A DNA stretch of 64,000 bases from Octopus vulgaris (lineage: Eukaryota): assembly GCA_951406725.2 (NCBI GenBank), contig OX597815.1, forward strand, positions 190,650,001 to 190,714,000, in the 5' to 3' direction. The translations under genes were made by a program, and so were the position numbers. The stretch's first letter is position 1; each line of letters opens with the position of its first letter. The notes under the pieces are model-generated. The model had not been told where the DNA came from. It was given only the letters and a program-made list of their open reading frames with translations, and did not search any database. This document shows, one piece after another, positions 23,018-64,000 of this stretch.

Positions 23018-24780
23018 AATCCCACCACCATCCACTTGACAACAGCTCAACAACTCCAAAAGCTCTCCACTCACCACTATCCGCTATGATCAAATTATTG
23101 GAAGAATGAAGCATTGTATCCATTAAAAAAAATAAAATAATAATTACAAAAAAATGTCGTAGCTGGAAAAACCATACATATAAGCCATATTCTTGGGATT
23201 AAACGGCCTACTGAATAATAATATATGCAAGCACTAATGGTTTGTGACATTTATAAAGATATTGAATTCTTGCAAAAAGAATACAGGAATATTTTCATTG
23301 AACTAATATTATTTGCATTCAAAGAGGTAAACAGGGCTTTCATGCTTATGAGATTCCATTTATTACAATATGCTATTCTAATATTAATACACCTCATTAA
23401 TCATAATGCATCCATTAATTATTATATTTTATTAATTATGATATCCTGGTATATCATAGAAAATCATTATCTCATTCACTCCAAAGGCATAATTACCTCT
23501 TCATTGTTGACTAAGATGTCACTGAGGAATTCTACCGTAATTCCAGTTAGACAATTCCCTTAAATGATAACAATAAGTGTTTTAATTAAAATGTTTTGTA
23601 AGCTATTAATGGTTTTCACTTTGTACTGGGAAGGCAAAAATTAAAAAGAATTACATCAATAGAAAATATTGCACAAGCGTTTTGGATATATATTCACTTG
23701 TGAATATTATGCATAGTACTTACTTGGCATCTGTGTCAATTTAATAACTAGCAAGATGTATTTTAAGCTATGGTTTCATAAAAAGATGAAAGGATCTTTG
23801 ATACAATTCCTTAAACATTCAATACACTCCAATTCACAAGATTTAAATAAAATACATGAATAGATTATTTTCTAAATAGATAAGCATGGGCTTTAGATGT
23901 CAGATTTTTGTATTGATTTTTTTTTCTTCTTTGAGATAGAAATTATTATTAATAGGTTCACTTACCTAAGAACACAACATTTCAACCTTAGATTAAAAGT
24001 TAGAGCAACTCAAACAAGACAATCTCAAACTGCTAATATTCCATGCTTTATAAATGAACTTGCAGTCGATGTACATGAAAATGAAGTGTTTAGTGGTGGA
24101 CTCAACAACCCATTAAGAATTATAGGATATTTTCATTTAATCTCCTGTATTGAAATTAAAGAGTGAGGGGGAAAAAAGCGGATAGTCAGAGAAAAATCCA
24201 TTAGACAATAGCACGACTAAATCAGGCTACAATGGATATTTCATAGCATTTATCTGTTTCTTTTTAATAAATCAAATACATACAACCTAAAGTAGCAACA
24301 TCTACGGTTTCTTTAGCAAGGGAAATTAGTTTGTAACCTAAAATCCACAAATGCTCATTTAATCAATAATGAAATTTATCCAATCTGGAATGAAAAAAAT
24401 TATTAATGTCACCAACTGCGGTGAAACTTCCCTGCTTTCTTAGCTTCAAAACCAACACTTCTCTTGCTATTGTCATTATTTGCATTCTAAAATTATCATT
24501 ACTGAGAACCAAACAATTACTAAACTATAGACCAACGAGAGACCCTCGGCATGGTCACTCAACCCGCTAGAAACAGGAAATAAATTTCCCTCAAATCACA
24601 CTTTGGTGTCTTAAAGAAAGACAATTACTAAGATTACATTGGATAATGTGCTAAACAGGTTTATGCTCGCAGAAAAGCAAACTGATGAGATGGTCATGGT
24701 TGGACTGCTTTCGTTATAGGGTTACATAATCAGGGATAAACTGAGACTATCAAACCATTTTCTTCATCTTCATTTTCAAA

Positions 24781-25260
24781 CTATCAGGCATTTGCCATAT
24801 TCTGAACGCCTTACTTCCCTGGGCATGGATACATTGAAACTCCGACATCTGGCAGCTGACTTGACGGATACCCATAAAATTATTAACCATCTTACACACA
24901 ATAACTCTGAGCACCTTTTCAAACTCCACCTGTCTAACACCCGTGGACATGTTTACAAAGTCAGAAAACAGCACAGCTCCCATGACTTTCAGAAACATTT
25001 TTTCAGGCTAAGAGTTGCTGAAGCATGGAACAAACTGCTGGCATCAGTTGTTAGTTGTCGGGGCACTACATCCTTCAAAACTTCCATGCTTCCTGAGATT
25101 TGCCAACTCTACACCTGATTTTCGCCCTTCCATACACATGCAAGCATGTATCTAACTCATACACTGTTCACTTTCCAGACATTTGTACATTACTGCATAT
25201 GCTTTATATGTACTTTTGACAAGTTGTGGTGCACCTGAGCACTGTATACAATAATTTCAT
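24781..25260 (+). mobile_element. CR1-type LINE 3' fragment (RT-ORF C-terminus plus 3' UTR)
   Basis: PYSERL..LGMDTLKLR..NTRGHVYKVRK..HFFRLRVAEAWNKL..VV..SFK. Confidence 0.9.
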
Positions 25261-27401: not shown

Positions 27402-27592
27402 GCACTCAGAAAGCGCAAACCTCCATCAGGGCAACACCAACGTCCTCTCAACGATTAAAATGAGAATATCTAAAATAAACTTGACTGCTCTCAAAAATGA
27501 GAAAACTAAAAATTAAGTTTAAAAGAAAAATGGAAAATAATCCAGAATCATTGTCCGGAACTGGATCAATCCCAAAATCTAATAAAAACAAA

Positions 27593-27633
<41 letters not shown>

Positions 27634-27643
27634 TAACAATAAC

Positions 27644-27705
<62 letters not shown>

Positions 27706-27710
27706 TAATA

Positions 27711-27958
27711 ATTATCATAGTAGGTGCATTAGGCATGATAAAAAAATATTCAGACAAATACATAACAAAAACACCAGGACTTACAAACACATATAACATA
27801 CAGAAAATTGCACTACTAGGCACTGCACACATCCTACGCAGAACACTTTCCATACAATAACCATCAGAGCATCACAACAAATCACAGCACATACCCAAGG
27901 TACACAGAGCTGCGCTCGGTAGTGAAGTGAAAGCACGCTATAAAAATAAAACTACTGA
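27711..27958 (+). mobile_element. R4/Dong-like non-LTR retrotransposon 3' fragment, family 1
   Basis: IIIVGALGMIKKYSDKYITKTPGLTNTYNIQKIALLGTAHILRRTLSIQ* (stop 27858-27860); AAT tracts on both sides. Confidence 0.8.
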
Positions 27959-41425: not shown

Positions 41426-41810
41426 CTAGTACTGGTATATATATCTGTATATATATCATCTATTCATATTATAAACCCATAGTGTAACACTTAGCAATGT
41501 CATTAATATCTAGCCACCATTTCAGTATTTTGTTGTCAGTAACTTTGTATATTTAACAGAACAGATTTAAGTTATAAATTTCCAGTATTTGAACTCAGAA
41601 TGAAAACTAAGAAGAAATACCTGGCATGCTCAATTCTGCCAGCTCACCACCCTATATCTCATTTAATATCAGTGCTGAGTTCAAATCACTTAACAGTTAA
41701 GCTTAATCATATAAGCTTAGTTTTGCTATAATTAGTATTTGTGACTATCATTTCTATAATTATTAAATATTATAAATTATTATATAATGTATAAATAATA
41801 TTATAATATA

Positions 41811-41944
41811 GAAGTGGGTGCTGAAAAGTTCCTGGCTTTAAATTTGTTGCAAAAGGCCTTGTTGGAGACCCAGCCTGAGTTTTTTTACAGGGCTTAGAAA
41901 AAGTGAAGGATCACAGCAACAAGTGTGTGAATCCAAGAGGGGAA

Positions 41945-41993
<49 letters not shown>

Positions 41994-42223
41994 GTTTAAC
42001 ATCCGTTTTCTGCACTAGCACGGGTTGGACGGTTCGACCGGGGTCCGGGAAGCCAGGAAGCTGCACCAGGCTCCAGTCTGATCTGGCAGTGTTTCTACAG
42101 CTGGATGCCCTTCCTAACGCCAACCACTCCGCGAGTGTAGAGAACATGTTGAATAAAATCATAATTAACTGATCCTCCTGTATTTTCTTTTACCCAGTGC
42201 CCGGAACTTTTCATCTCCTCCAC
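41811..42223 (+). mobile_element. Mariner-derived MITE with nested family C insertion
   Basis: Ends GGGTGCTGAAAAGTTCCTGGC / GCCCGGAACTTTTCATCTCC; NKCVNPRGEH|VE* split by 41946-42140 with GAACAT duplicated. Confidence 0.75.
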
Positions 42224-42565
42224 ATAATATATAATATTATATTAGTTCTGTCCATGCTTCCATGGAAAACAGATATTCAATAATGATGATGATGAAGATA
42301 AACTTTTAATCTGTTTTGAAATGTTATTATATCCTTAGGAGTTCTATTTCATCTGTTCCAGATATCATATTATAGTAGAAAGCTGTTTCCTGTTTTTTTT
42401 CACAAACTAAACATCTTTCAGTATCCTATTACAATATATCATCTGCATACCTGGTGTATATACCTTATATTCATGTCTTAAAGGAAAAAAGAAAAACACT
42501 AATCAACAACAGGTGTACAAATATATTCATGAATTAAACCAGATATGTATACAACAACTGCAATA

Positions 42566-42822
42566 TGGAAGGTGTTTATGAGCCATTTAAAAACACACAA
42601 AAACTGTTAGATTCACTTCAACATTTAAATTTAATTTGTCAAAATATTTTCATCGCTTTCAAACCACGACCTGTTCACTGACAAAATTCCATGCTGAATG
42701 GAATTTTGTCAATGAAGGTCGTGGTTTCAAAGCAGTAAAAATATTTTGACAAATTAAATTTAAATGTTGAAGTGAATCTAACAGTTTTTGCGTGTTTTTA
42801 AATGGCTCATAGACACCTTCCA
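42566..42822. repeat. Near-perfect 257-bp palindrome (~125-bp arms, 5-nt loop), PLE-like
   Basis: TGGAAGGTGT..GACAAAATTCCAT gctga ATGGAATTTTGTC..ACACCTTCCA. Confidence 0.93.
42635..42685 (-). ncRNA. Type I hammerhead-like motif with compensatory G3-C8 core (GUGAACA)
   Basis: Minus strand TTTGTCA-GTGAACA-G-GTCGT ggtttgaaa GCGAT-GAAA-ATAT-T-T-TGACAAA: 7-bp stem I, palindromic stem III AATATT. Confidence 0.65.
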
Positions 42823-43163
42823 CACTGTTGTTTTTGTTTCAGCATGCAATCTCAGATCAGGTCACTTGCTATGCAAGTATAACTCCATAAATGTACACAA
42901 CAGTTTTCTACAAAGTTTCCAGCCCCCAAATATTATACAGAAAAGCTTTGGTCCACCTGTGAAGAGGACACTTGCTCAAAATGTTGCCTAGTTAAATTGA
43001 GCCCATACCTATGTAGCTATAAAGCAAATTTCTTAATCACACACACATACACACACACTAATGCACACATATGCACTCACACACACACTTATACACAAAT
43101 AACTACATATATTTTCTTCTTCAGCACGAGCGGATTACAATAAATAAATTCAGTTATGCATTT

Positions 43164-58019: not shown

Positions 58020-58560
58020 CAAGCTGGGTATGTTTGGTACCAGGTAAGTGTGGCTGGATTGTTGCAATTTTTTTGTAAAAGAAGGAATATCTGTAAGAAA
58101 TCTCTTAAGACGAGTTACATAATCATTAACATCTCCATTAAAAGAATCGGTTTCTTCAAACATTTAACCAGGTAGAGTTAATGTTGTTCCGTACAAGAGT
58201 TCAGCAGGAGAATATTGTAAATTTTCTTTAACAGCACTTCTAATTCCTAACAATACCACTGGTAAGGCTTCTAACCAACTGTTAGAATCAGAATAAGTTC
58301 TTCATGAAAATTTCAACTGCCTATGAAACCTTTCTATCATGCCGTTAGATTGTGGGTGATATGAAGTTGTACGAATTCTATTAATCCCCAACAACTTATT
58401 GAATTCTGCGAAAAGGCTAGACTCAAATTGTCTACCACGATCTGTTGTCACTGTGTTTGGTATGCCAAATCTAGACATCCAATTGGTAAATAAGGTTTTC
58501 GCTATAGTTACTGCAGGATCAAGAAGGAAAGGTTCTACCCAGATGGCTGGGTGTCTGTCC
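58020..58560 (-). pseudogene. Gypsy LTR-retrotransposon integrase core fragment
   Basis: WMSRFGIPNTVTTDRGRQFES..RTTSYHPQSNGMIERFHRQLK*..WLEALPVVLLGIR..SPAELLYGTTLTLPG*. Confidence 0.92.
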
Positions 58561-58762
58561 TTCAACATGATCCATATGTAATATTTTTTAAACATGTCTC
58601 CGTAAAATTCATTGTTTATAATCTCATCCGTAATTTCATTTGAAATTTTTAACCGTGTAAAGCTACTTCACCCTTCATGTTTGTCTGTCCTTGTTTGTCC
58701 CCTCTTTGTAAATGCCTAAATAGCAAATTATATGAAATAAAGTAGTGTCACAATAAAATACT

Positions 58763-63227: not shown

Positions 63228-63480
63228 TGGCTCAATAAACATTACTAAGTGTGTCTTTCCAAATGCAGACATTACCTTTCGTATATTTTTAACATTAATG
63301 GTCACAAATTGCCCTGCTGAGCATTCATTGTCTCAGTTGAAGGATATTAAAAATTTCATCTAAATAACTGTGCAACAAGGCAGGCTGGATGCGTTATTTT
63401 TACTAAGAAGAGAACCAGATGCGTCACGTAAGATTAATTTTGAAGATCTGTTCAAGGAGAAAACTTTTCAAATATAATTA

Positions 63481-63794
63481 ATGTGGAAGTATACAAAAAT
63501 ATGGAAGTAAACAAAATGTGGAAGTATACAAAATGTGGAAGTATACAAAAATGTGGAAGTATACAAAAATGTGGAAGTATACAAAAACATGGAAGTATAC
63601 AAAATGTGGAAGTATACAAAAATGAGGAAGTATAAAAAATGTGGAAGTATACAAAATGTGGAAGTATACAAAAATGTGGAAGTATACAAAATGTGGAAGT
63701 ATACAAAATGTGGAAGTATACAAAATGTGGAAATATACAAAATGTGGAAGTATACAAAATGTGGAAATATACAAAATGTGGAAGTATACAAAAA
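63481..63794. repeat. 18/19-bp minisatellite (ATGTGGAAGTATACAAA[A])n, ~17 units
   Basis: Direct reading. Confidence 0.95.
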
Positions 63795-64000
63795 TAAACA
63801 TTATTTTCCGTCTTACTCCCAGTTTTGTTTCATTTTGAAAAATAAAAATTTATTTTAAGGTTTATTGTTTATATTCTGGATTACATATATGTGGTGGCAC
63901 TAAAACCTTTTAAGTGCTTAGGGTCTCTATGGGTCTTAATCCAGCCTTAATCAGAGCCATTGAGGGAACCTCTGCATAGATGCTCAATCTGAATGAAATA

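Follow-up and report, generated by a model that had tools for sequence, protein, structure and literature searches.

The stretch analysed here, called the window throughout, comprises 64,000 nucleotides of Octopus vulgaris DNA and was found to contain a palindrome of 257 bp at positions 42566-42822. The questions raised by this locus are what kind of element left the palindrome and whether one of its arms hides a natural hammerhead ribozyme in which the pair between core positions 3 and 8 is swapped to G3-C8, as the preliminary description had proposed. Hammerhead positions follow the customary numbering, and the motifs of the reverse transcriptase (RT) were read by eye.

The palindrome and its hammerhead fold

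The arms of the palindrome were complementary at 92%, and a fold computation returned a single hairpin for 42566-42822 at −181.6 kcal/mol (z −30.8). The palindrome is real, but the element was found to be larger (about 42553-42893) and asymmetric, being composed of two ends of a Penelope-like retroelement (PLE) joined head to head, followed by a one-sided tail and flanked by a 12-bp target duplication. The left copy of the duplication (42545-42556, plus strand) contained one mismatch against the right copy (42891-42902, plus strand, 12 bp) and overlapped the element end by ~4 nt. An inverted, 5′-truncated pLTR copy without the tail was present on the minus strand at 42553-42694, with its end ~125 nt downstream of G3, followed by the direct pLTR copy with the tail on the plus strand at 42695-42893. 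The start of the element's open reading frame (ORF) was found at 42802-42891 (plus strand) as the first ~30 codons, decayed and with one stop, the last ~60 nt of which form the one-sided tail. No host exon was evident by eye around the locus. The locus is a decayed short inverted insertion of a PLE and its palindrome is an ordinary PLE footprint of known architecture; the inverted-pLTR arrangement suggested earlier was borne out, and the parent PLE was found.

Two stem II changes from C to U and a further five minority letters recur in both arms of the locus, as would be expected if the arms came from a single source RNA or were converted later. Across 19 loci, the arms diverged by 6.3% within a locus versus 8.9% between loci.

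On the minus strand, the left arm was found to contain a minimal type I hammerhead fold at 42635-42685. A stem I of 7 bp (42685-42679 with 42641-42635) was followed by the core GUGAACA at 42678-42672, with G3 at 42678 and C8 at 42673, and by one extra G. These were followed by the presence of a 5-bp stem II, GAAA at 42651-42648, the palindromic AAUAUU and U17 at 42642, and the cut is predicted between 42642 and 42641. The type I order around GUGAACA agreed with the topology first read from this arm, and the right arm contained the decayed copy also described there, broken by G3A, a 2-nt deletion in the core and G12A. A descriptor that allowed any letter at positions 3 and 8 returned the left arm as the only match in the window with stem I of at least 7 and stem II of at least 5, and 1,000 local shuffles gave six such matches, one of them with a palindromic helix III.

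The left arm was found to be decayed as well. C11.1 and another C of stem II had become U, so that the stem was weakened by CpG decay and G10.1-U11.1 stood in place of G10.1-C11.1; owing to U11.1, the window copy escaped a stricter descriptor. The pairing probability of stem II in the hammerhead register was 0.06 in the window arm versus 1.0 in a young copy of the family, in which stems I and II reached 0.77-1.0. The AAUAUU duplex was worth no more than −0.2 kcal/mol, compared with −3.8 kcal/mol for a 10-nt palindrome that competes with it. With G10.1-C11.1 lost, the window copy is probably dead as a ribozyme on the folding model. The claim of a hidden ribozyme held for the presence of the fold, but with its decayed stem II the window copy is not a good ribozyme. 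The Rfam hammerhead models returned no match at E≤10 for either the window or the young copy, and a search of solved structures likewise gave no match. The expectation that CTGANGA-type searches overlook the variant was confirmed, descriptor and Rfam searches both missing such families.

Elsewhere in the window, a short element with inverted ends at 41805-42225 was found by eye to be interrupted by a CAT-headed interspersed repeat; we take its ends to be mariner-like. An array of ~17-nt units (family D16) was present at 63435-63811. The segment at 58302-58667 is presumably an integrase fragment of an LTR element, and those at 24720-25118 and 27510-27860 are presumably two ends of non-LTR elements.

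The parent element and its insertions

The parent (copy L085) was found to contain an open frame of 1,025 codons with RT motifs recognised by inspection and a GIY-YIG domain (Pfam PF01541, E 1.6e-5); the Pfam RT model gave no match on this ORF. The features of endonuclease-bearing (EN+) PLEs were present, namely RT and GIY-YIG endonuclease joined in one ORF, a pLTR that runs from the 3′ UTR across the hammerhead into the ORF start, tandem or inverted partial copies, an optional one-sided tail, variable target duplications and AT-rich targets. A CX3CX2C linker was also found, where a C-terminal EN with a CX2-5CxxC linker is the expectation for Neptune/Nematis; the protein tree contained no named references. 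In most of the copies L061-L096, the motif was located by pattern ~1 kb past the stop on the sense strand, and an inverted motif pair 2.5 kb apart was found to enclose a GIY-YIG frame. In two near-complete copies (L159 and L160) the motif was followed by the ATG and then by the ORF, and the tail is therefore the ORF start.

Exact matches to a 22-nt pattern that was open at positions 3, 7 and 8 numbered 6,147 in the genome versus none for the control, so at least 6,147 motif-bearing arms are present. A similarity search of the genome with the DNA returned 3,297 candidates, of which 40 were scored. In most of the 20 close loci just one arm contained an extension of ~60 nt, and non-TA target duplications of 10-15 bp were present in 11. 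The parent is a young, very common PLE family with RT and GIY-YIG. A second PLE family was found in the genome with 58% protein identity, containing a C3-G8 motif with A9C in the same place. The search for a third related family in the genome returned only these two, and no relatives were found in the viral and prokaryote collections.

The high copy number, the near-perfect inverted arms and the lack of an Rfam match would also suit a MITE or fold-back DNA transposon with a chance likeness to a hammerhead. Symmetric terminal repeats with a duplication of fixed length were not found in the family; the tail is one-sided, the duplications vary between 10 and 15 bp, the centres vary, and 37 of 80 loci contained a single arm. 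Such an origin is highly improbable, being refuted by the continuity of the arms with the RT-EN ORF in the parent element (L061, L085 and L096).

The RT of the parent and its relatives was found to contain a long spacing between motifs A and B (ORF P0001 of L085, relatives P0002-P0089), measuring 122-126 aa in six proteins (124 in the parent) versus 52 in another PLE-like protein. This spacing corresponds to a segment resembling an insertion in fingers, here in elements with a C-terminal EN. In the available part of an overview, insertion-in-fingers segments are tied to clades with an N-terminal EN (PMC8557442).

The ends were analysed in 80 loci chosen on the downstream stretch, containing 123 arms in 43 inverted pairs and 37 single arms. 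Measured from G3, the 3′ ends were bimodal, with 50 of the 123 at +119 to +135 and 73 at +175 to +183. The 5′ ends of 55 of the 123 arms lay at −29 to −15 (45 of 103 once 11 clonal passengers were collapsed), and the RNA would accordingly begin ~20-23 nt upstream of G3. Of the 103 independent arms, 62 retained the 5′ half of the motif in full, and most templates would therefore have been uncut. At the cut itself, 3 of the 123 arms started, two of them overlapping the partner through stem I and one containing an internal deletion. With 27 starts at the cut site and 26 at an offset taken as control, a rough correction for the flank gave p 0.09, and 21 stem I junctions were counted genome-wide without a matched control. 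Among the first 100 matches listed (36 loci), 18 TA-flanked starts were placed by eye at +35 to +41, under a pattern that favours late starts; those with direct adjacency numbered about 9 in 7 positions versus 13 in 21. Cleavage of the family motif in vivo is thus a prediction, and the 5′ ends gave no clear excess at the cut site.

The palindromes might have travelled as units, and 11 of the 43 pairs were found to share a junction; these share their flanks too and so ride in another repeat. They belong to one contig (L226, L254, L256, L257, L261, L268, L278, L283, L284, L288 and L290), in which one insertion was amplified within another repeat.

The insertions suggest a route in which the RT-EN protein would nick AT-rich DNA and prime twice inside the ORF start, the 5′ part of the RNA being copied onto both target ends and the copies then joined head to head, mostly from uncleaved templates. 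Two internal RT starts are described for the Anolis element in the available part of PMC11167929. In the RNA, G3 would pair with C8 as C3 does with G8, and two motifs would pair through AAUAUU and so complete helix III.

A read-through RNA from the minus strand would contain the complement ahead of the motif and so form the hairpin. Such an RNA may fold into a long duplex that would be A-to-I edited and unable to fold the ribozyme. The masking proposed earlier was right thermodynamically, but it is a generic by-product of the common inverted form of PLE insertions. As to editing, A>G and T>C changes were enriched at seven arm positions of the family over a genome-sized run, in runs only guessed to be RNA and with the DNA from other animals. 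At position 1757 of L013 they reached 19.6% and 5.9% versus 0.19% in the genome-sized run, and 11% in another organism; one G>A site was likewise enriched, in few contigs. These counts hint at duplex RNA editing of the family, not of the window locus.

Positions 3 and 8 in the family and its relatives

G3 and C8 were found together in 116 of the 123 arms aligned (all 66 young arms and 50 of the 57 old ones), in 95 among the first 100 pattern matches listed, and in 71 of 77 arms of a sample chosen on the downstream stretch. The canonical core in the same context gave 2 matches versus 3 for the control. GUGAACA is accordingly the norm of the family and not a quirk of the window copy, and it occupies the site at which the relatives contain their minimal type I hammerhead. 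Single changes at position 3 or 8 were found in 7 of the 123 arms because the copies mutate neutrally after insertion; independent variation among copies, held earlier to count against the swap, is therefore present at this level but is a poor test of it. In contigs of eight runs from four organisms no variant at position 3 or 8 was found among the rows listed (40 of 50 in one case, all of them in the other). In L015 both arms contained C8G, which may point either to a template with a mismatched core or to conversion between the arms.

Between the old and young subfamilies, 5 of 9 loop II columns differed and none of the 42 columns of core and stems. Given a rate of 3 in 87 for the flank, zero in 42 columns is non-significant (p 0.23), and the difference in loop II possibly reflects one event.

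As to its class, the family motif did not contain the literal CUGANGA core. Its core is enclosed by stems I and II in the order of type I, and it contained a Watson-Crick 3-8 pair, conserved U4, G5, A6, A9, G12, A13, A14, A15.1-U16.1 and H17, and the family features G10.1-C11.1, an extra base after A9 and the palindromic helix III. By position, topology and pairing rather than by literal core, the motif belongs with the PLE minimal hammerheads, its cleavage being predicted.

Relatives from metagenomes were found at 30 loci, and the 3′ flanks of 19 reached the ORF end; these came down to 12 independent units, each with 250 nt of flank or more. In 9 of the 12 the motif followed the stop on the sense strand, and 3 were without it. 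Six of these motifs were found by descriptor, and three, together with that of the second octopus family, were picked by eye; each of the four picked by eye contained one further defect (A9C, U4G, G12A and a 2-bp stem I). Across the resulting 11 families the 3-8 pair was C-G in seven, U-A in three and G-C only in the family of the window, all Watson-Crick (permutation p 0.0008, uncorrected for kinship). In the alignment, three rows of which are misaligned in stem I, the whole structure was 86.8% paired, above 500 of 500 shuffles and above all slid controls. A twelfth motif found afterwards (L153) contained U3-G8 with broken stems and was decayed; the supplement of PMC4209133, in its available part, also contains a minimal hammerhead with a U3-G8 wobble.

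The protein tree placed the window family next to the C-G octopus family as its sister (100/99) and spread the U-A rows over three distinct branches, of which one is long. Since G-C was restricted to a single lineage, the swap counts as one event. The earlier claim of a natural covariant stood in part: G3-C8 is family-wide and positions 3 and 8 covary across families, but not among copies. The matching pairs in the relatives suggest that the swap is likely tolerated in nature. A covariance model built from ten relatives without the window family gave E 0.2 for a young copy and 3.2 for the window, both non-significant, the model holding too little information.

Related hammerhead-like motifs with C at position 9 were also found at L124 6725 and L128 2497, the former in a very young family with many intact frames of 1,312 codons. 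The motif at L129 4973 contained U15.1-A16.1 replacing A-U, with the palindromic helix III kept.

Competing readings and known systems

The reading that we favour, with moderate confidence, is a short inverted insertion of a PLE family whose terminal repeat folds as a minimal hammerhead around a natural G3-C8 pair. On this reading, young copies likely retain a weak self-cleavage assisted by a dimer or by protein, and the old window copy is likely inactive. The further statement, for which we put the chances at even, is that a recently active family fixed a working G3-C8 hammerhead after crossing an inactive single-mutant state and regaining the pairing, so that one PLE group uses three Watson-Crick versions of the 3-8 pair.

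A hammerhead by descent that is catalytically silent or nearly so is a less probable but serious possibility; its fold would persist as a protein-binding, promoter-overlapping or unselected passenger, with G3-C8 keeping the shape and not the chemistry. Most insertions came from uncleaved RNA without a clear 5′-end peak at the cut site, the sister family contains A9C, L015 contains C8G in both arms, helix III is very weak and accompanied by U17, and ribozyme mutants are without effect on insertion in vitro in the available part of PMC11167929. Against such silence, all other core positions are canonical, stems I and II of young copies pair with a probability near 1, and only loop II has changed; the group moreover normally contains U17 and a weak palindromic helix III, and its members cleave weakly as dimers in the available part of PMC4209133. 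It is improbable that G3 and C8 arose without relation to each other in a dead ribozyme and are complementary by chance. The swap does occur in one lineage only, and chance descriptor matches were Watson-Crick at 3/8 in 26% (205 of 790), but both changes fell exactly on 3 and 8 in both subfamilies with none at other core positions, and three independent U-A swaps were found in the relatives.

If a working G3-C8 hammerhead was indeed fixed, a ribozyme dispensable for copying would still be selected, and CUGANGA-based censuses would miss whole families. The role of PLE hammerheads is at stake here, as they cleave poorly and insertion in vitro proceeds without them. Whether catalysis is under selection could be tested directly on this family, in which the double swap is natural and present in thousands of dated copies, and which can be compared with a C3-G8 sister of the same genome and with U3-A8 relatives.

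The kind of ribozyme and the architecture of the insertion are known, and the core variant would be new. Apart from the literal core, all the features given for PLE minimal hammerheads are present in the motif. As far as described in the available part of PMC4209133, the minimal hammerheads of PLEs share with the present family the pLTR location, an extra base between 9 and 10.1, G10.1-C11.1, a short palindromic helix III, the lack of a defined loop I and a presumed dimer. They contain only C3-G8 and U3-A8 cores in contrast to G3-C8, and a stem I usually of 4-5 bp versus 7 bp. EN+ PLE insertions, as seen in parts of the papers on Pen2a_Av (PMC3846280) and of the overview (PMC8557442), share the head-to-head 5′-truncated copy, the short duplication and the one-sided tail made of the ORF start; the window insertion differs from Pen2a_Av in being ~340 bp without a coding body and in a tail of ~60 nt instead of 30-40.

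Natural U3-A8 hammerheads (Perreault 2011, PMC3088659, in part) are likewise natural covariation at the 3-8 tertiary pair, whereas G3-C8 is a purine-pyrimidine inversion that would need two transversions without a wobble intermediate. A G3-C8 variant is mentioned as data not shown in the available part of PMC3884650. Natural G3-C8 was not found in the literature searched (including PMC10085705, PMC6765202, PMC6155905 and two bioRxiv preprints), mainly texts without figures, so that an earlier report is possible; the only form of G3-C8 encountered in that literature was a laboratory double mutant. The engineered C3G/G8C hammerheads of Anolis PAc (PMC11167929) and of the Schistosoma type (PMC8495972), each seen in part, contain the same swap and are partly active, the double change partly rescuing cleavage of the PLE hammerhead in PMC11167929, where PAc cleavage is protein-assisted. 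Compared with these engineered mutants, the variant of the window family is natural and fixed in a family of several thousand copies, with an activity that is predicted.
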